DNA from: an uncultured cyanobacterium
Lineage (GTDB): Bacteria; Cyanobacteriota; Cyanobacteriia; CAKZMO01
DNA: 64,000 bases
Direction of reading: 5' to 3'
Assembly: GCA_963719515.1 (NCBI GenBank)
Contig: CAVRCJ010000003.1
Location: 320,001 to 384,000, forward strand
Within the stretch, counting starts at the first letter, position 1, and every line of letters begins with the position of its first letter. The notes below the pieces were generated by a model. That model worked only from the letters and a program-made list of their open reading frames with translations, had not been told where the DNA came from and ran no database searches. The position numbers and the translations under genes are program-made. Positions 21,075-42,060 of the stretch are shown here, piece by piece.

Positions 21075-21968
21075 TTACCGCGACAGCTCTATGCGCGTAG
21101 AAGTCATCAACGCTTGAACCATGGCTCGACAGAGCGCACCCTCGACGACTTGGTCAAACCGAACAAACATGGGTGAACTGTTGAGTTCTAGAAAGGCGAG
21201 CCGTTGAGTTTTTGGGTCCGTCTTAAAGTCGGCTGCTCCAAAATCCATTCGTAGCGCCGCCATCAAGGCCCGTAGTTTCTCGACTTCAGGCTGCGGCGAG
21301 TCTAGCGGTACGAGATCTACATCCTGCTTGACGCGGTAGTCCAGAGACGGACTCTGAACCTCAAACGCAAAGGTGCGATCGCCCACCACATAAACTCGAA
21401 TTTCTGGCGCAACGAGTCGATTTTGCACAATGGCCGGAGTCGCACTACAGCCGTGGCGCGGCTGTAGCGATCGCAGCAGGTCGTCTAGGGGATAGCAAAA
21501 ATCGCCCCCCGCTACAGGTTTGGCGATCGCCTCCTTGGCGTCGAACTGCGCGAGCTGCGCGGCGTCGTTGGTGATGCAGATGCTAGGAATCGTCAGGCCC
21601 TGCTGCTGAGCCAGCATGAGCAGGGCCGGCTTGTTGCCTACGGCAGTCTGCTGCTGTCGGTTGAATAGCCGGATGTCTGGCTGAGAGAGCAGCCAGCCGT
21701 ACATTGCCTGGTACCAACCCGCCGATCGCTGCGCCGCTTGAGGCTTTTGGTCGTGAACGTCGTAGCGCAGGAAGGCCCCCCTCGGGGCGAGGGGCTGACC
21801 GTTTAGGGTCGCGCCACCGGACAGCCGCCAAGAGAAAGCTGGACTCGTCTCTGGGTGATGGCGGGCGTCCCGTATCGAGATGCCCATGAGGGTGGCAACC
21901 TCTATCAGCCGGGTGAGGTTGGGGTCCGAAGCTCCCCCGGCGATGAGTAGCGAATCTATCTGGGTCAC
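21075..21968 (-). CDS. ATP-grasp ligase (RimK-like), putative graspetide macrocyclase
   Basis: GNKP, AKPVAGG, AIVQNRL, EIRVYVVG, LDYR, FGAADFK, FLELNSSP; starts 15 nt after the precursor gene. Confidence 0.88.
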   Translation of the reverse strand: MTQIDSLLIAGGASDPNLTRLIEVATLMGISIRDARHHPETSPAFSWRLSGGATLNGQPLAPRGAFLRYDVHDQKPQAAQRSAGWYQAMYGWLLSQPDIRLFNRQQQTAVGNKPALLMLAQQQGLTIPSICITNDAAQLAQFDAKEAIAKPVAGGDFCYPLDDLLRSLQPRHGCSATPAIVQNRLVAPEIRVYVVGDRTFAFEVQSPSLDYRVKQDVDLVPLDSPQPEVEKLRALMAALRMDFGAADFKTDPKTQRLAFLELNSSPMFVRFDQVVEGALCRAMVQALMTSTRIELSR

Positions 21969-21983: not shown

Positions 21984-22508
21984 TTAGTAGCGACCGAAGG
22001 GACCGCCGGGCTCTTCTTCGCCCACGGCCAGGGTGGTGACGGGACTCTCTTCCCCCAGCGCTAGGGTCGTGAAGTCCTCTTCTCCCAAGGCACGGGTAGA
22101 GGCCACTGGACCTTCTTCCCCCAGGGCGCGGGTAGAGACTACCGGATCCTCTTCGCCTAGAGCCAGGGTAGTGATCGGCGCTGGGTCAGCGGATGCCGTT
22201 CTAAATTCAGAGGCGTGAACCGTAAGTGAATTGGTCCGTGCGGTGACAATGACGGCGTCTGCGCCGTTATCCGGGGTGATGCTGATGGAGGCAGAAATGG
22301 GGGACAGCACCTGGGGAACGATGTCCGTGGGCCGGTCGGCGTCAAAGCTAAATTCGAGAACGGCATCTCCGGGGGTGGGGTCGGCGGAGTTGTCGAGCCG
22401 AGGGTTGGTCCAGCCGGGGGTGGCGGCGAGCCCAGAGGCCTGGATGCAAAGCATTGGAGGTTCGCCGTGCTTGATGACGGTGACTTGGGTGACCTGGAGA
22501 ATTTTCAT
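21984..22508 (-). CDS. Multi-core graspetide (omega-ester RiPP) precursor with five (T/S)TxxxxEE repeats
   Basis: TTLALGEE, STRALGEE, STRALGEE, TTLALGEE, TTLAVGEE after a ~110-aa N-terminal region. Confidence 0.85.
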   Translation of the reverse strand: MKILQVTQVTVIKHGEPPMLCIQASGLAATPGWTNPRLDNSADPTPGDAVLEFSFDADRPTDIVPQVLSPISASISITPDNGADAVIVTARTNSLTVHASEFRTASADPAPITTLALGEEDPVVSTRALGEEGPVASTRALGEEDFTTLALGEESPVTTLAVGEEEPGGPFGRY

Positions 22509-26020: not shown

Positions 26021-26407
26021 ATGGACTATACGTACCGCCTCGCGAATGCCAGCCTCACCCTCAGGGTTGTTGAGTCTCTTAACCGAGCCCAGATGACCGT
26101 CAGGTTCATGACCGTCATCCACCAGATCGATGGTTGGGTGATAAAAATTAGGCTTGCCCATCCCCTGTCTGCTCAAGATGACGGCGACTTTCGAGCGTTT
26201 CTCAACGAGGTTGGCATCCCCTATACCCCAGACGTGCGGATGAAAATGACGTTCTGGGGACTAGAGACAGGTCAATCGCCCGTGGATGTGATGCGCCGCT
26301 ACCAGGTGGCGATCGTGTCCCACGGTGCGCCGGACTCTACGGAAATCGAGGCTTTCAGGCTGGAGTTCGTGAAGGGGTTGGGCTACTGCCCAGAGACCCT
26401 GGCCTAG
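26021..26407 (+). CDS. Hypothetical protein (paralog of 18498-18887)
   Basis: LANASLTLRVVE...AIVSHGAP...GLGYCPETLA. Confidence 0.82.
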   Translation: MDYTYRLANASLTLRVVESLNRAQMTVRFMTVIHQIDGWVIKIRLAHPLSAQDDGDFRAFLNEVGIPYTPDVRMKMTFWGLETGQSPVDVMRRYQVAIVSHGAPDSTEIEAFRLEFVKGLGYCPETLA

Positions 26408-27327
26408 TCGCTGTACCAGAACACGTCGGCAGCGCCTTCAGAAGCTTCTGCATCGACGGTACTACTCAGCGCCTCGGTGGGGCTGAGCAGTACCGTTGTC
26501 TGCTGCAAAGACTCTCCCAGTCGGCGGGATACCCGGCTGGGGATACCGTAGCCGTATAGGACATGGCCGCTGCCCGCCAGCACTACCACCCGCGTCTCCG
26601 GTGAGGCCTGCTTAAATTTGGCCACCGTCGCCGCCATCGTTTCGTCCCACACCACCTGCGCCGCGAAGAAATTCTCAAAGTCGAAGTTCCCGTGGCTGCC
26701 ATGTCCCCCAAACGCAGCCTGAACAAACTCTCGGTATTCGAGGCTGCTAGTATCCAGATCCTCTAAAGGGGGAATATAGCGAAAGTCTTGGGCCTCCAGG
26801 CTTTCAAGGCCTTCTCTAGCCACCTGACGCACCACCTCGCTCGGGGCGTTGAGGGCCAGCAGAGGGATTTGGTGGGCCTGGGCAAAGCGGACAATGGGCG
26901 CATAATACTGCCAAGGAAAGCCCCAGCGCTGCCCGTACTCGCTCTGGATCACCAGCTCCTCCTCAGAAATCTCTCCCGCTAGGTAGCGATCGAGTACAGG
27001 CTGGAAGGGGCGCTGAAACATCTCTAGGGCGATCGCCATATCGGGATCTTCGGCGTAGAGCGCCTGGATAATCTCAAGCTGGGCCATGTGGTCAGCGTCG
27101 CTGTCGTGGCGCTCCCCAAGGTAAACCACGTCGGTGAGCAGCGCTTCTAAATCGGCTGCGGGGCTAGAGCGAGCTGTCGGGGCGCTGACCCCCGGCAGTT
27201 CGCCTGCAGCTGAACAGGCCGCTGGACTAGCGAGCATTAGGGTGATGCCCAAAAGGCTGCAGCCGAGTCGCCATCGAGAGGAGGATGTCATGGGCAAGGG
27301 AGATTCAGATAGGGCGATTGAGTCCAC
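26404..27327 (-). CDS. ChaN family heme-binding lipoprotein
   Basis: Lipobox-like SPAAC; VVYLGERHD, ALEMF, AQVVWDETMA, LAGSGH, GIPSR. Confidence 0.88.
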   Translation of the reverse strand: MDSIALSESPLPMTSSSRWRLGCSLLGITLMLASPAACSAAGELPGVSAPTARSSPAADLEALLTDVVYLGERHDSDADHMAQLEIIQALYAEDPDMAIALEMFQRPFQPVLDRYLAGEISEEELVIQSEYGQRWGFPWQYYAPIVRFAQAHQIPLLALNAPSEVVRQVAREGLESLEAQDFRYIPPLEDLDTSSLEYREFVQAAFGGHGSHGNFDFENFFAAQVVWDETMAATVAKFKQASPETRVVVLAGSGHVLYGYGIPSRVSRRLGESLQQTTVLLSPTEALSSTVDAEASEGAADVFWYSD

Positions 27328-27568
27328 AGTGCAGCGTTAGCGCCACGGCGCTAGCCAACACCATCGAGGACAGGCTATCACAACCCGCGAGCAGCAGGCT
27401 CTGGTAGCTGAGCAGGCAAACGGCTAGGGCAACCCCGGCAGGAAAAGTCAACGACTCGGCCATCGTATCAGCGACGTCGGCCACATACTCTAAAAACTCG
27501 AGCAGTCGAAGAAATCTGTGAAGTATTGCCATAAGATCTAGCCATTTGAGAGAAAGGGCAAAGGGTCT

Positions 27569-28027
27569 CTAAAGAAGGTCAGTCATCCGACTCAGCAAGA
27601 TTTGCTGGGGAACTCGACCCACAAAGCTGTCGGCAACGGTGTGGTTTGAATCTAGCAGCGTCAGGTGAGGAACGCCGCTCACCTTGAACTGCGCAATCTG
27701 CTGCCGCCACTGCGGATCATCGATGTCGAGCATGACAAAGTTGACCTGATTTTCCACCTGATGGTGAATATCCTGCAGCGCTGGTGCTATGGCCTGACAG
27801 GTGGTGCACCAGTCAGCGTAGAACTCGATTAGGGTCGGTTTTGGGCTAGCCATGGCCAGCTCGTAGGGCATGGCCGCTGCGGCAGTTTCCCTGAGCGCTA
27901 TTAGCCCTGACACCGAGGACAGGCTTTGGGCGGAAGTGCCGGGGCGCGTCAGCAACAGGGTGGCGATCGCAAAGAGGCCTACCAAGGCAGCTGAGATTAG
28001 GCCGGCTTTGTTTGTATTAAGTGCCAT
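27569..28027 (-). CDS. Membrane-anchored thioredoxin (HCF164/TxlA/ResA-like)
   Basis: N-terminal TM helix, EFYADWCTTC, SGVPH; start ATG 28027 avoids overlap with the globin. Confidence 0.88.
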   Translation of the reverse strand: MALNTNKAGLISAALVGLFAIATLLLTRPGTSAQSLSSVSGLIALRETAAAAMPYELAMASPKPTLIEFYADWCTTCQAIAPALQDIHHQVENQVNFVMLDIDDPQWRQQIAQFKVSGVPHLTLLDSNHTVADSFVGRVPQQILLSRMTDLL

Positions 28028-28031
28028 GGGT

Positions 28032-28559
28032 TCAATGGACGCCGTACTTAAAATGGGTCGTTGAGTCAATCAGCTCGCGAAACGAGGGACTGACCTCTCC
28101 GTAGAGATCTAGCCATTCGTAAAAGGTCAGCTCTCCTTTGAGGTGGGCTTCGGGGTTATGCGCTCCTTCTATCATGATGCTGCTGATTAGCTGGTAGGCC
28201 TGCAGCCAGGCCTCCGCCAATTCTGGGGTCCATCCCTCGCCCAAATAATCCTTTAGCGCCTGCAGCAATGCTTGACCCACCATGGGATAGTGATCCTTTT
28301 CGGTTCCTTTAGTGACGTGATGGGCTCCTAGCCCCTGCAGTGCCTGAGATAGGGCGTGGGTGTTGTGTAGGTTCTCGACGATTAGGGCGAGAGAGGCCAC
28401 GAGCTTTTTTTGCTGTAGCTCAGGGCTAACATCGGCAAACATCGGCTTCAGCTCAGGGTTGTTCTCAAACAGATGACCGTAAAAGCTGCCAGAGAAGGCG
28501 ATCGCGTTGGGTTTAACTTTCTCGAAGCTGTTTTCAATCAGCGCTAGGGTATCAGGCAT
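28032..28559 (-). CDS. Single-domain globin (flavohemoglobin/Vgb-like) with a C-terminal extension
   Basis: SFYGHLF (B10 Tyr), PMF (CD1), QQKKL (E7 Gln), LGAHH (F8 His), HYPMVG; start ATG 28559. Confidence 0.92.
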   Translation of the reverse strand: MPDTLALIENSFEKVKPNAIAFSGSFYGHLFENNPELKPMFADVSPELQQKKLVASLALIVENLHNTHALSQALQGLGAHHVTKGTEKDHYPMVGQALLQALKDYLGEGWTPELAEAWLQAYQLISSIMIEGAHNPEAHLKGELTFYEWLDLYGEVSPSFRELIDSTTHFKYGVH

Positions 28560-28699
28560 GGAGGATGATTTAAAGTTTGTTGAGCGACCGCAGTAGGTCC
28601 AAGGGTGAATTTTAGAGGAGTCGTAGGGACACCGCATGCGGTGTCTCCATATCGTATAGATGCCCATCCAAGGATTGGATACAGGCCCCGATGGAAAGA

Positions 28700-29419
28700 T
28701 TACTGATAGTAATAAGCCAAAGCAATGTGGAATATCAGCATCACGGCGAACATGCAGACGAAAAAAATATGGCTCACCAGCCAAAGCGATCGCAGCCTCC
28801 GAATCAGAGGGCCTTTGGTGAGCGGTACCGGGCTCCAGGGCAGCTTGCCAAAGTAGCTGCGGGTGGACTCTAAAATGCCGGTTTCAGCGACCACCCCTAC
28901 CAGCGCAGTCAAGGTCACGGCAAAGAACACCCACAGCAGCGCTGCATTAAAGTTAAGGCCGTTGGAGCCCAGGGTGTGGACCAGCACCATGGCCACCAGC
29001 GCTACGCCCAGGAAGATATGGACGCTGCGCCACAGCTGCATTGATCCCGGCAGCTTGAGGCGGCCAATCCAGCTGCGGCTGCGCTTGCGGATGCTGAGCA
29101 TGACCTCCAGCAGCACAAAGCCCAGCGCTGCGTAGCCGGTGCTCTGCTTGTATAGCTCTCCGCGAACAAACTGGTGCAAATCTACGGACTTTTCCCGTAG
29201 CCAGTCGAGGTAGAGGGTACTAAAGGCGAAGGGCAACAGCAGCAGCGCCGTCAACAGGGTTAGGCCAATAAGTATCTTGAGGCTGGGCTGAATACCCCTA
29301 CGGGCTGCTTTTGCCTTTAGCTGTGGATTAATTTCAGCCCCCACAGCGCTACCGGGAGCGGACGGTTCTAGCGCCGAGGTCTGGGGATTGAACGGAGAGG
29401 GGGAGTGAGGAGTGCTCAT
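28700..29419 (-). CDS. Integral membrane protein, putative di-heme cytochrome b (ferric-reductase-like TM)
   Basis: About 5 TM helices with paired His: WRSVHIFLG...LVHT and VSHIFF...IFHIALAYYY. Confidence 0.72.
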   Translation of the reverse strand: MSTPHSPSPFNPQTSALEPSAPGSAVGAEINPQLKAKAARRGIQPSLKILIGLTLLTALLLLPFAFSTLYLDWLREKSVDLHQFVRGELYKQSTGYAALGFVLLEVMLSIRKRSRSWIGRLKLPGSMQLWRSVHIFLGVALVAMVLVHTLGSNGLNFNAALLWVFFAVTLTALVGVVAETGILESTRSYFGKLPWSPVPLTKGPLIRRLRSLWLVSHIFFVCMFAVMLIFHIALAYYYQ

Positions 29420-29538
29420 GAAAATTAAGAAGGGGTCGGCTGAACGCGTAGCCTGCGCGAGAGTTTCTAGCTGAGCTGCCGAGAGGGCGATCGGACATGT
29501 TTAGCGGCTTTGGAGAAGAGGCAATATGTCTTGGTCTT

Positions 29539-29612
29539 ACCCCCCTCAGTCCCCCCTTGGTAAGGGGGGAAGCGTAATTCTCCCCCTTACCAAGGGGGAG
29601 TTAGAGGGGGTC
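29539..29612. repeat. Cyanobacterial poly-C/poly-G double-hairpin intergenic repeat
   Basis: CCCCCCTTGGTAAGGGGGGA...TCCCCCTTACCAAGGGGGAG inside outer ACCCCC...GGGGGT; related element at 61129-61165. Confidence 0.75.
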
Positions 29613-29684
29613 TTCCGAGGTGCTAAGCACATGCGGGCGATCGCCCTCCCGGCAGGAACTACCGATGGCCTGTGATTTCGGCCA

Positions 29685-30368
29685 TTAAGCGCCCTCTAGG
29701 GGAATATTGATCACAACGCCGCCCATCACTTCATCCATCTCGAACATCTTGTCGGGGTAGCGCTCTAGGTGGACGGGGTGGGTATTGTGGCAGGTCACGC
29801 AGGCCTCAGCGACGGCCTTGTCGGGATACATGGCGGAGAAGTAGGTCTGGCCGCCGATTTCCTGGTATTCCTTAACGGATTCGCCCGTGTCGATCATCGT
29901 TTGGACGGCAGCTTCCTCAAACTCGCCTTTGGGGGCGTGGCTGTCGTTGAGGTACCAAGGGGAAATCAGGTTGTAGGTGAAGTAGCCCGACTCATTGGCA
30001 ATCTCAGAGCCGAGGCGGAACATCTGCGCCGGGAGGGGAATGCCGTCGGCCTGCTGCCAGGTCTCGGTGGACTCAACCTCAAGCACGCCCGCATCTTTGG
30101 CCTTGCCCTCTAGGGTCTTAACTCGGTTGACTACGTGCTTAGTGTAGGCGGTGCGGTCAGCCGCCAAGACGGTGTGGATGTAGTCGGCCACTAGCTCAGG
30201 GGCGACGCCAGCGGAGGCCTCAGTGGTAGCGGTGCCGCCGCCGCCGCCGCTACAGGAGATCGCCGTGACGGCAACGGCCAAGATGATGGCAATGAACGCC
30301 ACCGTTCGGGTGCGGATAGCACTGATCCAGTTCTCTAGCATTGTCATGGTTGTGTCCTTAGGGTTCAA
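29685..30368 (-). CDS. DUF3365/Tll0287-like monoheme c-type cytochrome lipoprotein
   Basis: Lipobox AISC; PLPAQMFR; AVAEACVTCHN; DEVMGGVVINIP. Confidence 0.85.
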   Translation of the reverse strand: MNPKDTTMTMLENWISAIRTRTVAFIAIILAVAVTAISCSGGGGGTATTEASAGVAPELVADYIHTVLAADRTAYTKHVVNRVKTLEGKAKDAGVLEVESTETWQQADGIPLPAQMFRLGSEIANESGYFTYNLISPWYLNDSHAPKGEFEEAAVQTMIDTGESVKEYQEIGGQTYFSAMYPDKAVAEACVTCHNTHPVHLERYPDKMFEMDEVMGGVVINIPLEGA

Positions 30369-30476
30369 TACGTGCGTTAGATGCGCTGCGAGAGCGTTTA
30401 ACGAGGCTTCCAGAATACAAAACGGAGAAGCCCCGAGAGCGAAAAGTTCGTCTGAGCGAACGCGGGATTTGACGGT

Positions 30477-31286
30477 CTAGTCGCTGCTCCCTTCGTCACC
30501 TTGTCCGACCCGCCGCTCTTCCAGGGCACGCACTAGGTCAAAGGTTTCTAGGGAGAGGGTAGGCGGCTCATCGAAGTTGGCCTCCACCAGGTCGTCGTCA
30601 AAAATACTGTTGTAGCTATACTCCACGCCGTGGCAGTTCATGCACACCTCTCCCACCATGCGATCGCGGGGCAGCAGGGTATAGGTATTGTTGTGGTTCA
30701 CCAGGGTCACAGTCTCGCCACCTTCCACCTCATGGCGCGGCAGGTGGCAGGTAGCGCAGCTTACCGCACTGCCGGAGGGACGCGGTAGCGCTAGGTCGGC
30801 GGCGAACAGCTGGGCGTGCTGGGAGTTTTCGTAGTTGAGGGAGTGGGTGTCGTTGTGACAGGTGAGGCAGGAGTCGACGGCGGCCTGAACGGTGTTGACT
30901 GAGTGGGCGTCGTGGCAAGTGCTGCAGGTCATCTGCATGTCGTGGGCGACGGTCTTCATCGGCAGCCGCGCCATGGCGGGCCTTAGGGGCGACTCATCTT
31001 CCAGCAAGCGAATGCCGTGCTTCCCCAGCAGGAAGGTATCCACCGCCTGCTCGTGGCAGGACTGGCAGCTTTCGTAGGTGGGGTTGGCGACAAACGCCTG
31101 GGTTTCTTCGTCTTGGTGGCAGCTAGAGCAGTTGATGTCGTTGAGGGCGTGGGCGCTGGTTTCCCAGAGCTGGGTGGTTTCCTTGACCAGAGCCTGGTCG
31201 ACATCGCCCCAGGCTGGCGCGGCCCAGCCAAGCAGCAGCGCCAGGGCCAGTAGCCAAGACATCACAGACTTCCTATTCAGCGTCAT
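30477..31286 (-). CDS. Hexaheme c-type cytochrome, exported
   Basis: Signal peptide (AAPAWG); CSSCH, CQSCH, CSTCH, CLTCH, CATCH, CMNCH. Confidence 0.93.
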   Translation of the reverse strand: MTLNRKSVMSWLLALALLLGWAAPAWGDVDQALVKETTQLWETSAHALNDINCSSCHQDEETQAFVANPTYESCQSCHEQAVDTFLLGKHGIRLLEDESPLRPAMARLPMKTVAHDMQMTCSTCHDAHSVNTVQAAVDSCLTCHNDTHSLNYENSQHAQLFAADLALPRPSGSAVSCATCHLPRHEVEGGETVTLVNHNNTYTLLPRDRMVGEVCMNCHGVEYSYNSIFDDDLVEANFDEPPTLSLETFDLVRALEERRVGQGDEGSSD

Positions 31287-31960
31287 GACTTACCCCCCAG
31301 AAACGCCTTACCCAAGTCCGCTGCTGGGGCCGATTTCAGCTCTGTCGTCACCACTCGTTCTGGCACGACCTGCACCGGCAGCATGGGGGGCTGGTCGAGG
31401 TTTTTCCTCAGGAACCCTGTAGAAATTGTGCGGTGGTCGTGGTAGTTGTGGCACCCGGCGGTCCAGCAGCCGTCTGGCGTAAACCCGTCGTGGCTTTTGA
31501 GGTCGCCCGCGGCGATGCCTTCGTGACAGGCCATGCAGAGGTCAGGCTGCAGGTGAACGCCGCGACCAAACATATGCACGTGCTCGTTGTGGCAAGTGGT
31601 GCAGGTGAGGGCCTCAATCTTGGCCAGCTCCCCTGCCCAGCGCGGGTCTCGAAACTTTTGAGCCCCGTGAACATCCTCGGCTAGCTCGGCCTCGTGGCAG
31701 CGCATGCAGGTGTCGTTGCTGACGGGCTTAAACCCTTCGTGGCAAGAGGCGCAGGAGCCTTCAATAAGGTAGTGGCCTACGGAGGTCTCCCCGGGCAGAA
31801 ACGCCTGCTTGTTGTCTAGGGCAAATGCCGCCGAAAACCAGCCCACCAGAAGAATGCAGGCGATCGCGATCGCCGTCCTCAGGCTGATAAGCCGACTTAT
31901 ACCGCTAGCTTGCGATCGCTGCCGCTTGGGTGGCCTATTAGGTCTACCTCGAGATGCCAT
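31283..31960 (-). CDS. Pentaheme c-type cytochrome (c3-like) with one CX4CH motif
   Basis: N-terminal hydrophobic helix; CASCH, CMRCH, CTTCH, CMACH, CWTAGCH; ATGA overlap with the hexaheme gene. Confidence 0.92.
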   Translation of the reverse strand: MASRGRPNRPPKRQRSQASGISRLISLRTAIAIACILLVGWFSAAFALDNKQAFLPGETSVGHYLIEGSCASCHEGFKPVSNDTCMRCHEAELAEDVHGAQKFRDPRWAGELAKIEALTCTTCHNEHVHMFGRGVHLQPDLCMACHEGIAAGDLKSHDGFTPDGCWTAGCHNYHDHRTISTGFLRKNLDQPPMLPVQVVPERVVTTELKSAPAADLGKAFLGGKS

Positions 31961-32000
31961 GACTCTAGGACGTTCCTCCCAATGAAATTAAAGCGGTGGG

Positions 32001-33076
32001 CTAAAGCAGCAGCAGAATGATGAGTAAAACTGCGCCACCACCAATTACCCCCCCCAGCAGCGGACCAGGCTTGAGGCCGTCTTCAGCGGTTGGGGCTGGT
32101 GCTTCAGAAGCAACGGGCTGGGCGACGGGCTCCGCCACTGGCTCCAGCTGCACAGACTCAGGAGAATAGTCAGCGCCCTCTAGCATCACCTCAGTGATCA
32201 ACCCGTAGGCGTCAACCCAAGCCTGCTTGACCTCCGGCGTCCAGTCTTCCTTGAGGTATTGCTCAAAGGTTTTGAGGAGGCTGTTGCCCACCAGGGGATA
32301 ATGATCCGGCAGCGCGCCATACTTGACGTGGCGAGCCCCCAAGCCTTTGAGGGCACCGGTCAATTCGCCGGGTTGACGCAGGTTCTCGACCACAAGACCA
32401 AAGAAGCCAAAAGCATCTCGCTCTGCTTGGCCATGTTGGTATGCGCAAATAGCGGCTTGGCTGCCGGATAGTCCGTAAACAGATTGTCGTAGAAGCTTGT
32501 CGCAAATTCATCGGCGTGGGACTTTACTTTCTCAAAGCTCTGCTCCAGCATGGCGACTTTTAGGCCGGTCGCCTTATCCACCTCGTTGACATCCACGGCG
32601 AGGTCAGATTCTGGCGGCTCAAGCGTCACCTCTTCTGCGGCTGTAGTCGGCCCCTTCTAGCATCATCTCGGTAATTACACCGTAGGCGTCCATCCAGGCC
32701 TGCTTTGTCTCAGGGGTCCAATCAGTCCAAGGTATTGGTCAAAGGTTTTAAGGAGGAGTTACCGACCAAAGGATAGTGGGCTGGTAGCGCGCCGTACTTA
32801 ACGTGGCGAGCCCCTAGCCCCTCAAGGGCGCCAGTCAGCTCGCCAGGGTGGCGTAGGTTCTCGACCACAAGACCGAAAGACGCCAAAAGCTTTTTGCTCT
32901 GCTTATCACATCGGTTGCGCAAACAGCGGTTGTGCCGCTGGATAGTCTGCGAACAAGTTCTCGTAGAAGCTTTCGCAAAGTCATTGGCATGGGGCTTTAC
33001 TTTTTCGAAGCTTCTCTCCAGCAGCTCGACCTTTAGCGCCGAATCTTTGTTAATGATTTCAACGTTATGAAGCCAT
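32001..33076 (-). pseudogene. Tandem di-globin with a C-terminal membrane anchor; multiply frameshifted as assembled, possibly intact in vivo
   Basis: Joining frames gives two near-identical globins (SFEKVK..SFY.NLF..VVENLR.PGELTGAL.GLGARHVKYGALP.HYPLVG..W.DAYG..MLEGADYS), then a Pro/Ala linker and a GGVIGGGAVLLIILLLL tail. Confidence 0.85.
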
Positions 33077-33659
33077 TGGTATGCCTGTCCTGCAGTAGTG
33101 CAAGTTGAATTTTATAGTGAGTGAAGGCGCAAAGGGGCATCTTCTCGATTCAATACATCGGTTGGCCAATCGCATCAGCTACTCGTAATGATTTCCTGAT
33201 ATCGACGCGCTTGAAGAGACCTTAGGAAATCAGTTAGTCCTCGACTGCCAATCTTGACTACCAAATGCCTGGTAAGACGACATCTATGAAGACAGCCAAG
33301 CAAGCTCGATCCAGTATTGCTTCAGCGGGGCACTCGAAAGCTTTTAGCTCGTCGTTACATGGCAGCAAAAGCTGCGCGACGCAAACCTGACGCATAGAGA
33401 ACCGATAACCTGCACGATTTTGTCAAACAAAGCACATTTCGAGAATTTAAATTTCCGAATTTTGCATCGCTTTATGCGTTTTTCGCATTGCAAGTCCGCC
33501 AGCGCGATCGCGTGAAACTGTTATGCAAATTGCGTACTGAATTAAAACCACATTTTGCATAAGAATGTGCTTGGCTTTGTATCAAATACTGCAAATATTT
33601 CTAAGCGAAAACCCATAAAAGTTGAATAGATGAACTCTGACCACTCTGTAGAAATATCC

Positions 33660-35492
33660 ATGCCGTCTAAGGCCGTTCGTTTTTTAGGCTCAATTCGCTT
33701 AGCGGTGCCGCTGATTGGCGGCGATCGCACTCATATTAATTGGAGCCACGTTTTACGAGTCCAGCGTCGGCTCTGCCACCGTTCAGCGCGAAATCTACAA
33801 AAGCGCCTGGTTTGGCGGGCTGATGTTTTTGCTGGCGGTCAACTTAGGGGTCTCTACCCTCAGCCGCTATCCCTGGCGAGGCGCGCGCAAAGTTGGATTT
33901 GCGATCACCCACTGTGGCCTAATCATCATCATTGCCGGGTCTGCCGCCGTCATTCACCTCAGCACCGAGGGCATGCTGCTGGTGCGTACCGACAGCGGCC
34001 CCGGGAACCAAATCCGCGTGGAGGGTGACCTATTGGAGGTGGTATCGCCAGACCAAAAGCGCCAGCAAACCGATATTTTTGTCAAGCCGGACGGCTCAGT
34101 CTACCCCGCTCAGTTTGCCGGACTCTCGATGCTGGGCTACAGCGACAGCGCCATCAAAACCGTGAGCTTCGTTGAGGGGGATAGCGATAAAGACCCAGCC
34201 GCGAAAATTTGGCGGTCAAGCTGCAGCTGCGCAGCGATCGCATGGGTCAGACCCTAGAGCGGTGGCTGGCGACGGCTCCCATGGGCTATGGCCAAATGGA
34301 CATCGGTCCGGCGCATTTGGAGCTACGGCAGGCGATGGATGAGGGCGTACTCGCGCAGTTTCTCAGCCCCCCGTCGTCTCAGTCCGCCTACGGAACGCTG
34401 ACGCTGGGCGATCGCACCGTCGATATCGAAAAAGTGCTGGGCCGCTCGGTTTCCCTGAAAAAAGGGGTGAGCGCTGAAATCGTCGACGTCTGGCCCGACT
34501 TTCGGCTGACGGCGGGCAAACCGACCTCGGCCTCCAAAGCCTTCCGTAACCCAGCGGTGCAGGTGAATGTGGCCCAAGGTGATATCCAAGAGCGCTGGTT
34601 TGTGTTCGCAAAGCCGGGCTTGCCTCCGGTACGCTCCGGAAATTCCATCGCCCTAGAGGCCACCTACACCGCGCCGGAGACCACGGCGTCCGATTACTTC
34701 CGCGTTGTGGCCGCTCCTGGGGGGCAGCTGTTTTACGCGGCGCTCTCGTCCAAAGGCTTCAAGTCGGGTGAGCTGCACTCTGGTGAAGCGATCGCTCCTG
34801 GCTGGGCCGACTTTCGAATCTCGCTGGCCGAGCGTCTAGATCACGCTCAGGTGCAGCGGCAGGTAGTGCCCATGGCCCCAGTTGCCCCCGGCGCAGCCAG
34901 TAGCGAGGGATTTCCGGCCCTGCAGGTGGCTGCTGAGGGACGGAAGGCCTGGCTCCCCTGGGGCGAGCCCATGGCCCTCGATACGCCCGGCGGCGAATAC
35001 TTCGCGGCCTTTACGCCCAAGCTGCTACAGCTTCCTTTCTACGTGAAGCTCGATGACTTTATCGTGGAGCGCAACGAAGGTAGCGAATCGGTGGCCATGT
35101 GGACCAGCAACATCACCCTGTTTGACCCCACGACCGACACCGCCGCCCACCGCTCGGTGTGGATGAACCACCCCACCTGGTTTCGCGGCTGGAAGCTGGC
35201 CCAGGCATCCTGGAATCCTGGCGACCTGAAGCAGTCTACCCTGCAGCTGAAGCGGGAGCCCTGGTGGGTAACGGCGCTAACCTGGATCGGGTCGCTGATG
35301 GTGGTGACTGGCGTGGGCACCATGTTCTACGGTCCGGCGCTGGTGAAGCGATCGCGGGGCCGCAAACCCGCACCCCAGCCCGGAACCCCGTCGCCCGAAA
35401 CACCTTCGCCCGAAACACCTTCGGGACAGGCCACGGAGGACGCGATCGCCGAACCGGCACCACAATTGGTTGGGGCGCAAACCCATCCGTGA
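33660..35492 (+). pseudogene. ccsB: ResB/CcsB-type cytochrome c biogenesis protein; two single-base frameshifts (~33717, ~34205), likely assembly errors
   Basis: FLGSIRLAV..IGATFYES, IYKSAWF, GFAITHCGLIIIIAG, MNHPTWFRGWKLAQAS across three ORFs. Confidence 0.82.
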
Positions 35493-35527
35493 ACCGCCCC
35501 GCCGTAAACGAACAATTTTGGACAACT

Positions 35528-37261
35528 ATGAACGGCTCTAACATCATTAAATTCTTGGTCGGTCTGTGTTTGGGCTGCGTCCTCCTACTGCTGCCCCTCA
35601 GCCAGTTCCAGCCCGACGGCCTTGAAAGCCTGCGCACCCTGGCCGTGCAGCTTGACGGGCGCAAAAAGCCCCTCGACACCGTTGCCAAAGAAACGATCGC
35701 TAAGATACATGGCTCGACGACCTATCGTCACGCGGACGGTGAAGCGATCGCCAAAGAGGGCTACCTCACCGCCTACCTCGGCATGTGGTTCAACACCCGC
35801 AACTGGAACGAAGAGCCCGTGGTGCTGGTCAGCTATCGACCCCTCAAAGAGGTGGCTGGCCTAGATTTAGAGCGTAAGCACTTCACCTTCCAGGAGCTGA
35901 TGACCAACCGGGAGCTAGGAGCGATCGTCGGGCAGGCTCACCAAAAGGAAGCCGAAGAGATAGACCTCAGCCGCGATGAGCGGGAGGCACTCTCCATCGA
36001 AGGTCGCCTGAACCTGCTGTACCAGGCCGTGGGAGATAAAAGCCTGCCCATTGTCCCGCATCCCAGCGAAATTAAGGGCAAATGGGCCGGTCTCAGCAGC
36101 TCGCCGCAGCTCTACGCACCAGAGGCGATCGCCCCGGTGATGGCCCAGTTTGCCGTGATGCAGCGGACCTTACTGAGCGGTGGCCTCACCCACCTGCCCA
36201 TGGTGGGGCCGCTGGCGGATAACCTCAAGGAAAGCCTGCAGCAGCTCAGCCCTGCGATTTATCCCACCGACGTGACGCTGGCGCGAGAGGTGCATTTCAA
36301 CCACTTTCACCCCTTTGCCAAGACCTGGTGGCTATACGGCCTGGCATTCATCGCCATGCTCGCCGCCCTATGGATAAAGCCCTGGAATCTCTACTGGAGC
36401 GCCATCGGCCTGTTCACGGCGGGCATTGCGGTACAGAGCTACGGCTTCTTTCTGCGCATGCAGATTGCCGGTCGGCCCCCGGTCACCAACATGTATGAAT
36501 CTGTAGTGTGGGTGGGCTTTGGCATCGCGGCGATCGCCCTGGCGTTTGAGCTCACCTCCCGCAGTCGCTACTACCTGCTGGCGGCGGCTCCCCTGGCCAT
36601 GGTCTGCCTCATCTTGGCCGACAGCCTGCCCGCCGTCCTCGATCCCAGCATCTCGCCCCTGGTGCCGGTGCTGCGGGACAATTTTTGGCTCAGCATCCAC
36701 GTGCCCACCATCGCCCTCAGCTACGCCAGCTTTGCCCTAGCCCTGGGGTTGGGACATGTCGCCCTGGGCAACTATCTATTTGCCCCGCAAGAGAAAAAGC
36801 GCATCAAAACCCTGTCTCAGCTCAACTACCGGGTGCTGCAGGTGGGGGTGCTGCTGCTGACGGCGGGCATTATCCTAGGCGGCATCTGGGCTCACTTCTC
36901 CTGGGGCCGCTTCTGGGGCTGGGATCCGAAGGAGACCTGGGCACTGATTGCCCTGCTCTGCTACCTGGCTCCGCTCCACAGCCGGCTGACGGGCTGGATG
37001 GGGGACTTTGGCATCAACGTGGCTAGCGTGGTGTCGTTTAACGCGGTGCTGATGGCTTGGTACGGGGTGAATTTTGTCCTGGGTACGGGATTGCACAGCT
37101 ACGGCTTTGGCACCGGAGGGTCGGCGCTGGTGATTGCCGGGGTGGTGGGTCTGGACCTGCTGTTTGTGGCGATCGCGGCGGTGCGGCATTACGGCTGGTT
37201 CAAGGGTCTGGGTGAATCCACGTCTGCGGTGCCTCCCGATGGCATCATTGTGGGAGATTAG
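35528..37261 (+). CDS. ccsA: CcsA/ResC cytochrome c synthase (System II), long form with a periplasmic domain
   Basis: GRKKPLDT, GRPPVTNMYES, LVPVLRDNFWLSIHV, WWD motif SWGRFWGWDPKETWA, GLHSYG. Confidence 0.94.
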   Translation: MNGSNIIKFLVGLCLGCVLLLLPLSQFQPDGLESLRTLAVQLDGRKKPLDTVAKETIAKIHGSTTYRHADGEAIAKEGYLTAYLGMWFNTRNWNEEPVVLVSYRPLKEVAGLDLERKHFTFQELMTNRELGAIVGQAHQKEAEEIDLSRDEREALSIEGRLNLLYQAVGDKSLPIVPHPSEIKGKWAGLSSSPQLYAPEAIAPVMAQFAVMQRTLLSGGLTHLPMVGPLADNLKESLQQLSPAIYPTDVTLAREVHFNHFHPFAKTWWLYGLAFIAMLAALWIKPWNLYWSAIGLFTAGIAVQSYGFFLRMQIAGRPPVTNMYESVVWVGFGIAAIALAFELTSRSRYYLLAAAPLAMVCLILADSLPAVLDPSISPLVPVLRDNFWLSIHVPTIALSYASFALALGLGHVALGNYLFAPQEKKRIKTLSQLNYRVLQVGVLLLTAGIILGGIWAHFSWGRFWGWDPKETWALIALLCYLAPLHSRLTGWMGDFGINVASVVSFNAVLMAWYGVNFVLGTGLHSYGFGTGGSALVIAGVVGLDLLFVAIAAVRHYGWFKGLGESTSAVPPDGIIVGD

Positions 37262-37277
37262 GCTGTATCGGCATACT

Positions 37278-37381
37278 GTAGGTTGGGTTGAATTTATGAA
37301 ACCCAACGTCACCATTGATATTGTTGGGTTACGCTAGCGCTTTTTAGCGAAGCCATGCCCGAAGGGCTATACCCAACCTAC
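37278..37381. repeat. GTAG-type REP doublet (REPIN-like) with a nested SDR-like insert
   Basis: Terminal IR GTAGGTTGGGT...ACCCAACCTAC; internal AACCCAAC/GTTGGGTT; insert AGCGAAGCCATGCCCGAAGGGCTATA. Confidence 0.75.
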
Positions 37382-37401
37382 GATTTTTGAGGAATGAACC
37401 T

Positions 37402-37875
37402 ATGAAACGACGCGAATTTATGAACTGGGTGGGCTTTGGGGCCCTGGCCGCCTCCCTCCCCGTGGCGATCGCCGCCTGTCAGCCTGATACCGCCTCGACC
37501 GACAGTGCCCCAACCGACAGCGCCCCTGCTGAAGATGAGACTGCATCCGCAGAACTGGACAGCACCCCTGACGCTGAGGGCTTCTCCGCCATCGGCACGG
37601 TTGCCGAGCTAGACGAGGGCAGCATTTCCAGCAAGAACTTCCAGGGCGAGCAGGTCGCCGTCGTTCGCGCAGCCGAAGGCGTTGTGGCGGTCAATACCCT
37701 CTGCACCCACCAAGGCTGTACCGTCAAATGGGACGGTGAAGCGTTTGCCTGCCCCTGCCACGGCTCCAACTTCTTCCCTGACGGCAGCGTTGCCACCGGC
37801 CCAGCATCAGAGCCGCTGCCGACCTATGAGGCTAAGATTGACGGCGATCGCGTCTTGGTCAAGGTGGCGGCGTAG
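37402..37875 (+). CDS. Rieske [2Fe-2S] lipoprotein (PetC3-like), Tat-exported
   Basis: MKRREF Tat signal, IAAC lipobox, CTHQGC and CPCHGS. Confidence 0.93.
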   Translation: MKRREFMNWVGFGALAASLPVAIAACQPDTASTDSAPTDSAPAEDETASAELDSTPDAEGFSAIGTVAELDEGSISSKNFQGEQVAVVRAAEGVVAVNTLCTHQGCTVKWDGEAFACPCHGSNFFPDGSVATGPASEPLPTYEAKIDGDRVLVKVAA

Positions 37876-40728: not shown

Positions 40729-42060
40729 CTAACTGAATGTGAATACTCCCGACGTTCTTCCTGCAGAAGCGCTTTGCGAACATCCTACGGATAGAGCGCG
40801 GGCTTCATCGGTCACCCGATGAGCGTCCTGCTTCTGGGCCAGTTGGCTAGATATGGTTTCCCACATCCCCGCTACCTCGACTCCACAGGCAATTTGAATA
40901 CCCGAAATTCCACGGGCATTGATGACTTGAGCAGCGGCAATATCCCTCGGCTTGAGCGACCCACACTCAGGGCACCGATGAACGCGATCGCCCCACGACT
41001 TTTTGACCGCAGCGCCGCAATTAGGACACTCCTGAGAGGTGCCGTAGGGGTCAACCTTGCCGTAGTAGACACCGCGCTTGAAGCATACCCACGGCAAGAC
41101 CTGGTTCACGAACTGCCCAAGGCCAGCGTCCAGGGTGTGCTTACCTAGCATCCCTTTCGCCATGACGCGAAAGTCAAGGTCTATGTCCTTCGGACAGGCT
41201 GCGCCAACGGCAAAGATGATTTGGGCCTGGTCACAAAGCTTGTGGGCCAGCTTGAACTGCCAGTCAAGTCGACAGGCCGCTATCTGCTCATGCACCCGTC
41301 CAATTCTTCCGATGAGCTTGGCGCGGTTCTTCGAGCGCCGCTGCTTATTCTTCAGTCTGCGTTGCAGCAATTTAAGCTTGCGCTGCAGCTTACCGAAAAA
41401 GCGCGGGCGCTCTACCTGCAAGCCGTTGGAAGTGGACAGGAAGTACTCAATCCCTACGTCAATGCCAATGCTGTCCCCAGCAGGGATGACATCAGGCACG
41501 TTGACATCGGCTTGAATGCAAAGGGTAGCGTACCACCCCGAATGCTTTTTGATTATGCGCACCGTCTTGACCTTGAATCCGTCAGGAATAGGGCGGTGCA
41601 GAACGATGCGCATCGTGCCCAGCTTAGGCAACTTGATTTGGCTACCCGTCACCGGGTTTTCCTTGAACTGCGGAAAGAGAAACGAGCGGTATTGCCCAAA
41701 CTTTTTGAAGCGCGGGAAACCATGACCTCGCTCTTTTCTCGCAGCAAACGCCGCCTCTATCCGTCCTATAACGTCTTGAAGAACCTGCGACTGCACTTCT
41801 TTCAGGTGAGGAAACACTTTTTTAGCGGCAGTCAGCGATCGCTTCTGAGCGTAGTAATTGGGGTAGGGTACATCTGCTGGCATGATGTACTCCGACTGAA
41901 GCGAGCAGGCATTAGCTACGCAGCTTCTCGACTTTACCCAGTCCTTGCGTTCGCGCAGTGCATAGTTGTAGACGCCGCGACAGGTCTCAAGCCAACAGAC
42001 CATACGGGCTTCCTGCTCAAGAGACGGATAAATTCTGTAGGAGTAGTTCAAGGTCAACAT
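40729..42060 (-). CDS. tnpB: RNA-guided endonuclease TnpB; RuvC-II Glu position disrupted
   Basis: YSYRIYPS HTH, GFPRFKK, IGIDVG (RuvC-I), TSQECPNCG/CPECG Zn finger, RDIAAA (RuvC-III). Confidence 0.93.
   Translation of the reverse strand: MLTLNYSYRIYPSLEQEARMVCWLETCRGVYNYALRERKDWVKSRSCVANACSLQSEYIMPADVPYPNYYAQKRSLTAAKKVFPHLKEVQSQVLQDVIGRIEAAFAARKERGHGFPRFKKFGQYRSFLFPQFKENPVTGSQIKLPKLGTMRIVLHRPIPDGFKVKTVRIIKKHSGWYATLCIQADVNVPDVIPAGDSIGIDVGIEYFLSTSNGLQVERPRFFGKLQRKLKLLQRRLKNKQRRSKNRAKLIGRIGRVHEQIAACRLDWQFKLAHKLCDQAQIIFAVGAACPKDIDLDFRVMAKGMLGKHTLDAGLGQFVNQVLPWVCFKRGVYYGKVDPYGTSQECPNCGAAVKKSWGDRVHRCPECGSLKPRDIAAAQVINARGISGIQIACGVEVAGMWETISSQLAQKQDAHRVTDEARALSVGCSQSASAGRTSGVFTFS

Follow-up and report, generated by a model that had tools for sequence, protein, structure and literature searches.

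An 11-heme cytochrome module shared by cyanobacteria and other bacteria, and its candidate link to nitrogen-oxide chemistry

Oxygenic phototrophs are usually taken to possess mainly monoheme c cytochromes. Here we analyze a cluster of redox genes in a 64,000-nucleotide stretch of DNA (the window) from an uncultured cyanobacterium of the CAKZMO01 lineage (assembly GCA_963719515.1, contig CAVRCJ010000003.1, positions 320,001 to 384,000). Its core consists of an 11-heme cytochrome c protein, a Tll0287-like heme lipoprotein, and a membrane protein with four conserved histidines, while ChaN, a Rieske protein, and globins are accessory. This architecture is unlike any described system that we found: the gene set is not described in the literature searched, from which subscription journals were mostly absent, and datasets S1 and S2 on the sCache_heme family may list its proteins. 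The reading that we favor, at a probability of about 0.52, is that of a nitrogen-oxide module co-regulated with nitrate assimilation, in which an outward electron wire would supply a periplasmic reductase and tethered globins would act as nitric oxide (NO) dioxygenases.

An earlier note on this DNA, prepared by a model from the letters alone, had reported the gene run together with 12 c-heme motifs and three globin domains, all of which we confirm; the motifs are distributed as five, six, and one, and one of them is CX4CH. Matches in Pfam identify ChaN, thioredoxin, globins, the Tll0287-like protein, two multiheme cytochromes, ResB, cytochrome c assembly, and Rieske proteins at the locus. The pentaheme and hexaheme genes, which overlap by 4 nt, are the only open reading frames with at least four CxxCH motifs in the 5.28 Mb genome. 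The features are as follows.

26404..27291, minus strand: ChaN-family lipoprotein, accessory (Pfam)
27569..28027, minus strand: membrane-anchored WCxxC thioredoxin, putatively CcsX/ResA-like in role
28032..28559, minus strand: second globin, soluble, with a C-terminal extension, accessory (Pfam)
28700..29419, minus strand: five-helix membrane protein with His pairs H134/H148 and H217/H231, probable di-heme cytochrome b
29685..30347, minus strand: Tll0287-like (sCache_heme, PF11845) monoheme lipoprotein with a lipobox and one CxxCH (Pfam)
30477..31286, minus strand: hexaheme cytochrome c with six CxxCH and a signal peptide, HAO/octaheme-like C-terminal half of the 11-heme protein
31283..31960, minus strand: pentaheme cytochrome c with four CxxCH, one CX4CH, and an N-terminal membrane anchor, N-terminal half of the 11-heme protein
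About 32001..33076 (start approximate), minus strand: di-globin, tandem domains of the flavohemoglobin/Vgb type with a C-terminal membrane anchor, broken by seven single-base indels
33422..33435, minus strand: degenerate NtcA-box position, GTG-N8-GAC, aligned to the site in the same-genus locus L049
33453..33488, minus strand: NtcB-type box, ATGC-N7-GCAT-N6-ATGC, one spacer base short in this assembly
33579..33592, plus strand: NtcA-like site 5′ of ccsB, GTA-N8-TGC, conserved in L049
33660..35492, plus strand: CcsB (ResB family), second genome copy, broken by two single-base indels
35528..37261, plus strand: CcsA, long cytochrome c synthase with a WWD domain, second genome copy (Pfam)
37402..37875, plus strand: exported Rieske [2Fe-2S] lipoprotein with a twin-arginine/lipobox signal, found in cyanobacterial-type loci only

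The same gene order recurs in many cyanobacteria and is thus not a product of chance. From a scan of GTDB genomes, the best 80 of 421 related stretches were kept and divided into 39 cyanobacterial-type and 41 other loci; five members of the former group bear no label beyond "uncultured bacterium" and owe their assignment to the split gene layout, and in the tree they lie inside the cyanobacterial clade. Synteny across these 80 loci bears out the co-conservation of the cluster that the earlier note had assumed. Many locus contigs are short, and the gene counts are therefore lower bounds. Across phyla, the Tll0287-like gene is present in 77 of 80 loci, making it the most constant partner of the 11-heme protein, and the membrane domain is present in 73. 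The 39 cyanobacterial-type loci hold the lipoprotein in 38 cases, a globin in 37, the membrane protein in 35, thioredoxin in 28, ccsA and ccsB in 22 each, a pentapeptide-repeat gene in 20, Rieske in 17, and ChaN in seven; the corresponding counts for the other 41 are 39 for the lipoprotein, 38 for the membrane domain, 28 for any globin, 14 for a small cytochrome c, two for ccsA, and none for Rieske. With ChaN and Rieske this sporadic, and with three Acidobacteria loci showing no globin nearby, the fixed, self-contained set that had been proposed is not supported.

The module extends to Verrucomicrobia, Proteobacteria, Acidobacteria, Planctomycetota, Myxococcota, and Poribacteria, and its cultured carriers include Cerasicoccus maritimus, Neptuniibacter sp. 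CAU 1671, Vasconcelosia minhoensis, and Moorena bouillonii. Close homologues of the hexaheme half occur in many cyanobacteria, strong matches being found in four genomes when 401 were sampled across the phylum, and in 9 of the 17 from the order. A profile of the Tll0287-like protein matches 51 of 401 class genomes (at least 90% completeness), and among ten further loci fetched by this route, eight hold the whole module and two the lipoprotein alone.

Several variants of the locus deserve separate mention. One locus (L028:2693-12050) carries the whole module twice in tandem, adjoining nitrate transporter genes. The pentapeptide-repeat gene, encoding about 308 residues (e.g., L057:17007-17987), is absent from the window copy. 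An unusual nitrate-assimilation layout is seen at L021:16030-17607 and similar Verrucomicrobia loci, where a 4Fe-4S/DmsC-anchor fusion and a CysJ-like flavoprotein lie beside nirA and a molybdopterin nitrate reductase.

Together, the pentaheme and hexaheme genes encode one split 11-heme protein, not the two separate cytochromes initially described. A single 11-motif protein is encoded in all 41 non-cyanobacterial loci, and the five-plus-six pair in 38 of the 39 cyanobacterial-type loci, the last of which has its multiheme region cut by a contig end. Among 64 full-length homologues, 40 have ten CxxCH and one CX4CH, 13 have eleven CxxCH, and 11 have fewer. Their alignment reveals eleven non-motif histidines, invariant or nearly so, for eleven hemes, and all eleven c hemes are probably bis-His ligated. 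The hexaheme half matches the hydroxylamine oxidoreductase (HAO) family in sequence (PDB 6H5L, E 2e-6) and has a fold match to 4N4J (Z 7.3, middling by the tool's scale; rmsd 3.5; 184 residues aligned), and HAO or octaheme proteins occupy the top rows of all three sequence and fold similarity searches. The structure model used for the 11-heme protein (pLDDT 85.8) had no Foldseek match at E 0.001 or better.

This likeness to HAO, octaheme, and NrfA proteins (6H5L, 4N4J, 1FGJ, 2OT4) has clear limits: the chain has roughly half their length, a separate pentaheme unit stands in front, and one motif is missing. The CDMCH of 6H5L aligns to a cysteine-free stretch whose histidine is poorly kept (6/45), and neither CxxCK nor a heme-4 motif is present in the aligned 11-heme homologues. 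We take the lost motif to be the catalytic heme position of HAO (heme 4, the one before heme 5). Since the catalytic-heme motif is devoid of its cysteines, the protein looks like a wire instead of a catalyst, and the proposal of catalysis by the multiheme itself is not supported. The pentaheme half differs from the NapC/NrfH quinol dehydrogenases in having five motifs, not four, and matches no NapC/NrfH family in Pfam or NCBIfam; weak Pfam similarity to MtrC-type domains was observed. A complex prediction of the pentaheme, hexaheme, and Tll0287-like proteins gave a median of 0.11 against a mark of 0.32 (runs 0.35, 0.11, and 0.01) and is used neither way.

The Tll0287-like lipoprotein matches PF11845 at 70.4 bits (cut-off 24.1), and a profile of its alignment matches no solved structure at E 0.1. 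All 71 rows, drawn from different phyla, agree at 21 positions, many of them polar; among these are D71, R72, Y75, R82, E102, and H197, and also a histidine two residues past the heme motif. It shares with Tll0287 and other sCache_heme proteins the PF11845 domain, the CxxCH motif, and the form of a stand-alone exported protein. It differs in having its own invariant motifs (CxxCHNxH and PLPAQMFR), a constant position next to the 11-heme protein, and no distal cysteine of the kind that gives Tll0287 its His/Cys ligation, an extra cysteine being missing in 71 of 72 cores. Sulfide handling has been proposed for Tll0287; no sulfide:quinone reductase cluster recurs among the locus neighbors, although a genome-wide search was not made. 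The preprint that defines sCache_heme as heme-bearing Cache domains treats the role of stand-alone members as an open question in its main text, from which the words "operon", "multiheme", and "nitrite" are absent, and describes tight NO binding by cysteine-free signalling members (10.64898/2026.02.01.703092). Whether the module lipoprotein may serve as the catalyst is, in our estimate, an even call. Close orthologues with the rest of the module not nearby occur at L121:8148-8867 and L122:7958-8587, the latter sitting among chemotaxis-type genes (named from sequence only).

The membrane protein is predicted to have five helices. Its four histidines are invariant in 75 of 75 rows and form pairs 14 residues apart on helices 3 and 5, and the protein is probably a di-heme cytochrome b. 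Loops 2 and 4 are basic (+7 and +3), which places these loops and the N-terminus on the predicted cytoplasmic side. Pfam/NCBIfam, fold, and atlas searches returned only DUF4405 below its cut-off and generic helix bundles, with cytochrome b561, STEAP, and superoxide oxidase among the fold matches at non-significant ranks. In its two histidine pairs, located on helices 3 and 5, the protein is reminiscent of the ferric-reductase (FRE), NOX, and MsrQ domains, which together with cytochrome b561 share the arrangement of two pairs on two helices, have the parallel of an NAD(P)H/FAD fusion in the module's homologues, and usually export electrons. No Pfam/NCBIfam match ties the membrane protein to these families, and its fold matches are generic bundles.

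Outside the cyanobacteria, this domain is fused in 35 of 41 loci behind positions 1 to about 467 of NirB, an arm composed of Pyr_redox_2 and Fer2_BFD (FAD/NADH and [2Fe-2S]). Matches of the module proteins to the NirB model TIGR02374 stop near position 467 of 794, with scores under the family cut-off; relative to NirB/NasB, the four-His membrane domain takes the place of the siroheme half. Two Myxococcota fusions (L070:6068-9982 and L073) reach at least 1300 residues, carry extra domains, and lie upstream of the 11-heme gene. With NADH as donor, electrons would be exported, and we consider an outward direction probable. The arm is absent from the window and from all 39 cyanobacterial-type loci. 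Cyanobacterial NarB and NirA take electrons from ferredoxin, not NADH; loss of the arm would parallel this usage, and ferredoxin is the likely donor in cyanobacteria. Overall, the transmembrane heme conduit envisaged in the earlier note gains support; its supposed link to the quinone pool does not, as the homologous membrane proteins are wired to an NADH flavoprotein instead.

The accessory globins share a uniform heme pocket. Across 87 aligned domains, positions B10, E7, and F8 are Tyr in 87 (the anchor pattern allowed only Tyr/Phe at B10), Gln in 87, and His in 85, respectively, so that they appear to be flavohemoglobin-type globins and candidate NO dioxygenases. Of 40 cyanobacterial-type loci, 33 have an upstream globin that ends in a C-terminal membrane anchor, in many cases preceded by two or three globin domains; three in tandem were seen in L037, L048, and L072. 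All 22 non-cyanobacterial globin rows lack such an anchor. Eight non-cyanobacterial loci use a truncated globin, which suggests that activity matters more than fold. The module globins are the only globin matches in the window's genome, where family searches found neither Hcp nor a truncated globin; both heme-copper oxidase matches there have CtaD-sized frames, and the absence of qNor is judged from open reading frame length alone.

CcsB, CcsA with its WWD domain, and thioredoxin make up a System II set, albeit with ccsB frameshifted in this assembly. Given a separate ccsA (C17) and ResB gene (C6) elsewhere in the genome, the cluster's ccsB and ccsA constitute a second set. A dedicated second System II is therefore supported, in keeping with the heme-maturation machinery claimed for the cluster at the outset.

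A connection with nitrogen oxides emerges from both operon context and promoters. Nitrate transport, reductase, or NasT genes lie within 10 kb in 16 of 41 non-cyanobacterial loci, and an Rrf2 regulator in five, NsrR being the best model for four of these; 20 loci have one or the other. In the cyanobacterial-type promoters, a first, unbiased dyad count found GCA/ATG dyads and GTA-N8-TAC to be enriched. Among 38 upstream regions, assessed against 100 shuffles, an exact NtcA box is present in 22 (shuffles mean 1.9, maximum 6), an NtcA box with a -10 element at 21-24 bases in 18 (mean 0.2, maximum 1), and a LysR dyad upstream of the NtcA box in 15 (mean 0.02, maximum 1). Twenty regions yield the consensus ATG(C)-N7-GCAT-N7-ATGC with GCAT 41-43 bases 5′ of the NtcA box, and four of the 20 fit poorly. 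The Anabaena nirA promoter holds ATGC-N7-GCAT-N7-ATGC-N7-GCAT at -100 to -64 and NtcA at -48, a distance of 41 (10.1101/2022.10.10.511513). The strict composite pattern recurs in three of eight further module loci. In L049, the counterpart of the window's NtcA position reads GTA-N8-TAC without a mismatch and is followed 22 bases on by a -10 box, and a contig from a near strain carries one more base, at 33473, within the NtcB-type box (depth about 2, may err).

The genome also encodes NtcB (E 1.5e-120 to PDB 8H3V), and the same composite is seen upstream of its nirA-transporter-nitrate reductase cluster (transporter and reductase named from sequence). The module thus resembles the nirA operon under NtcA/NtcB (10.1101/2022.10.10.511513) in box sequence and spacing; it differs in that its genes encode neither transporter nor reductases, and its sites are predicted. 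At the ccsB promoter, for which 12 of 26 regions could be anchored, exact NtcA boxes in 3 of 12 (shuffle mean 0.75, maximum 3) are suggestive only of NtcA control. Taken at the level of sequence, the module is a candidate member of the NtcA/NtcB regulon, a tie to nitrate/nitrite control appears well supported, and the nitrogen-oxide link raised in the earlier note fares likewise; a nitrogen-oxide role is, in our judgment, highly probable. No nifH over cut-off was found in the genome to suggest a link to nitrogen fixation.

In the scheme that we favor, electrons would leave the cytoplasm through the di-heme cytochrome b and pass along eleven c hemes, probably bis-His, in the periplasm to the Tll0287-like lipoprotein, whose cysteine-free heme site would reduce a nitrogen oxide, NO being the likeliest. 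Heterotrophs would use NADH as donor, acting through the fused NirB-type FAD/[2Fe-2S] arm, and cyanobacteria, which lack the arm, would likely use ferredoxin. Tethered globins would serve as cytoplasmic NO dioxygenases that convert NO to nitrate, and the hemes would be matured by the dedicated CcsB/CcsA/thioredoxin set. Wire and globins would both guard, and perhaps feed, nitrate assimilation. The scheme is built on module composition, split and fused gene forms, conserved ligands, the NirB-arm fusion, operon context, and promoter boxes, from which we infer heme b binding, localization, direction, the nitrogen-oxide role, the lipoprotein as catalyst, the ferredoxin donor, and NO as substrate. 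A more elaborate version is offered tentatively: the electron-input arm of NirB would have been redirected to deliver electrons across the membrane to an 11-heme wire that derives from HAO and has lost its own catalytic heme. The Cache-fold heme lipoprotein would be the active site, with periplasmic NO, nitrite, or hydroxylamine as the substrate to be reduced and perhaps ammonium, available for assimilation, as the product; cyanobacteria would drive the complex by photosynthetic ferredoxin under NtcA/NtcB.

A number of observations weigh against this scheme, which is drawn from sequence. Neither nitrate genes nor Rrf2 accompany 21 of the 41 non-cyanobacterial loci; the Rrf2 proteins reach 115-126 bits against an NsrR cut-off of 182, with RirA scoring much the same; and nirA lies within 10 kb in only one of 39 cyanobacterial-type loci. 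On the promoter side, the LysR dyad was first found in the same set in which it was tested, and the window's NtcA site departs from the box at two positions and lacks a canonical -10. A profile scan of the whole genome for NtcA+NtcB, whose top 25 include neither the module promoter nor that of nirA, is not discriminating. Three Acidobacteria loci have a free membrane protein and no globin nearby, in genomes without a NirB-arm match at E 1e-25. The lipoprotein stands alone in two of the ten extra loci, once among chemotaxis-type genes, and the stand-alone sCache_heme member whose assay is described, a cysteine-bearing protein of a different subfamily, binds NO weakly (10.64898/2026.02.01.703092). 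Finally, the loci are related (four are from Moorena), and their counts overstate independence.

Alternative explanations differ mainly in where the chemistry is placed. In cyanobacteria the wire might run inward, with periplasmic electrons from Rieske, or from oxidation of hydroxylamine or another substrate, passing through the multiheme and cytochrome b to tethered globins that perform the main chemistry. The confinement of both globin anchor and Rieske to cyanobacterial-type loci, the missing flavoprotein arm there, and the pairing of acidic globin domains (median -5.5) with basic membrane loops all suit this arrangement; yet the basic loops are equally conserved in fused forms, Rieske is found in only 17 of 39 loci, 13 of the other 41 have no globin in the fetched DNA, and the prevalent NADH-arm fusion argues for export, so that we regard an inward wire as unlikely. 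Improbable in our estimate is a new periplasmic reductase making ammonium from nitrite (or hydroxylamine) and recovering nitrite that leaks during nitrate assimilation. An HAO/NrfA-superfamily fold, an electron arm from NirB, and an NtcB-type promoter as at nirA are what one might expect of such an enzyme, and an eleven-heme store would fit multi-electron chemistry, but CxxCK and the heme-4 motif are lacking. Moreover, a canonical nitrite reductase is encoded in the window's genome and in at least 21 of 39 module genomes tested, which correspond to 39 of the 41 given loci (14 with full NirB, seven more with NirA in the locus), making replacement of the assimilatory enzyme less likely as well.

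Two further proposals dispense with nitrogen-oxide turnover. The module could be a ferric-reductase-like or extracellular electron-transfer outlet, for metal reduction or as an electron sink, made alongside iron-rich nitrate enzymes; the helix 3 and 5 histidine pairs, the presence of ChaN in some loci, and the faint MtrC-type similarity would accord with it. It leaves the globins and NsrR-like regulators unexplained, ChaN is confined to seven of 39 loci, and an outer-membrane cytochrome is encoded in none of the loci mapped, so that the extracellular electron transfer suggested in the earlier note is not supported and this outlet seems quite improbable. A sensing device, in which the sCache_heme lipoprotein would perceive NO or redox state and the wire merely set its oxidation state, is very improbable: the Cache fold, the tight NO binding of signalling relatives as described in the preprint (10.64898/2026.02.01.703092), and the orphan copy in L122 speak for it, but the 80 loci share no conserved cluster with a kinase, chemoreceptor, or cyclase next to the module, and an 11-heme wire with an NADH arm would far exceed the needs of a sensor.

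The di-globin and ccsB, treated as open genes in the earlier note, have no open frames in this assembly. Compared with L049, in which the di-globin is intact at 344 residues, the former contains seven and the latter two single-base indels, all within 32393-34202. The other eight genes have no uncompensated indel inside stretches aligned to L049, apart from a 1-base gap in ccsA at 37201, 10 bases from the alignment end. A frame change in only 1 of 60 other genes compared with the same-genus genome indicates that the damage is local. A poorly polished assembly stretch is very probably the cause: all nine indels are single-base and lie in one 1.8 kb stretch that crosses intergenic DNA too, the eight neighbor genes are open, and single contigs of related DNA (depth about 2, may err) have an extra base at 32725, 32755, and 33473. 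These contigs derive from four DNA runs of one study, no RNA run being among those listed, and leave most of 32160-33695 uncovered, with two of the nine coding indels comparable. True decay of the module in this strain only, with both genes as pseudogenes, would agree with nine frame-changing indels in two genes against the background of 1 in 60, as well as with the degenerate NtcA site, and is on balance rather unlikely.

The cluster does not stand out in composition. Its GC content of 52-62% is similar to that of the flanks, and 26404-37875 contains 21 HIP1 sites (16.8 expected at the genome average), and so it looks like native DNA, not a compositional island. A recent horizontal island is rejected on these measures and on the placement of 41 cyanobacterial-type rows on one side of a long branch (99% SH-aLRT) in a quick, preliminary tree rooted at its midpoint, from which no donor is claimed. 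Between the lipoprotein and membrane-protein genes lies a short dispersed repeat (29495-29630), partly palindromic, with 27 blastn matches in the genome. A 128-residue protein without a Pfam/NCBIfam match (26021-26407, plus strand) adjoins the module here and also in L023 and L049. Farther away, 40729-42060 (minus strand) is a TnpB-family RNA-guided nuclease gene (NF040570, over cut-off). At 21984-22508 (minus strand) is a gene for a 174-residue protein with five C-terminal TxA(L/V)GEE repeats, the sole such frame in the genome, and directly downstream lies an ATP-grasp maturase-like gene (21075-21968, minus strand; TIGR04187 E 2e-21, below cut-off). The repeat protein looks like a graspetide precursor of the plesiocin type and has an unusually long N-terminal part.

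Among the closest known systems is the Bradyrhizobium narK-bjgb-flp-nasC operon for nitrate assimilation, whose Bjgb globin and Flp handle NO from that pathway (PMC4724949). There, a single-domain globin of the flavohemoglobin/Vgb type and an NAD(P)H flavoprotein are tied to nitrate assimilation (PMC4724949). The module globin is similarly co-located and co-regulated, as judged by sequence and with a weak NtcA site in the window. However, the Bradyrhizobium system as described there lacks a membrane cytochrome b, an 11-heme protein, an sCache_heme lipoprotein, and dedicated maturation, which here form the core around an optional globin; and a transmembrane chain stands here in place of a soluble flavoprotein partner. 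In part the module also resembles membrane reductases that export electrons, yet on the features compared it belongs neither to the Bjgb/Flp type nor to HAO/NrfA or NirB.

The module would add a multiheme electron wire to oxygenic phototrophs and provides a testable context for stand-alone sCache_heme proteins. Cultured carriers exist, and direct testing is thus feasible. If it is true that the module turns over NO or nitrite, it would constitute an uncounted step in nitrogen cycling.

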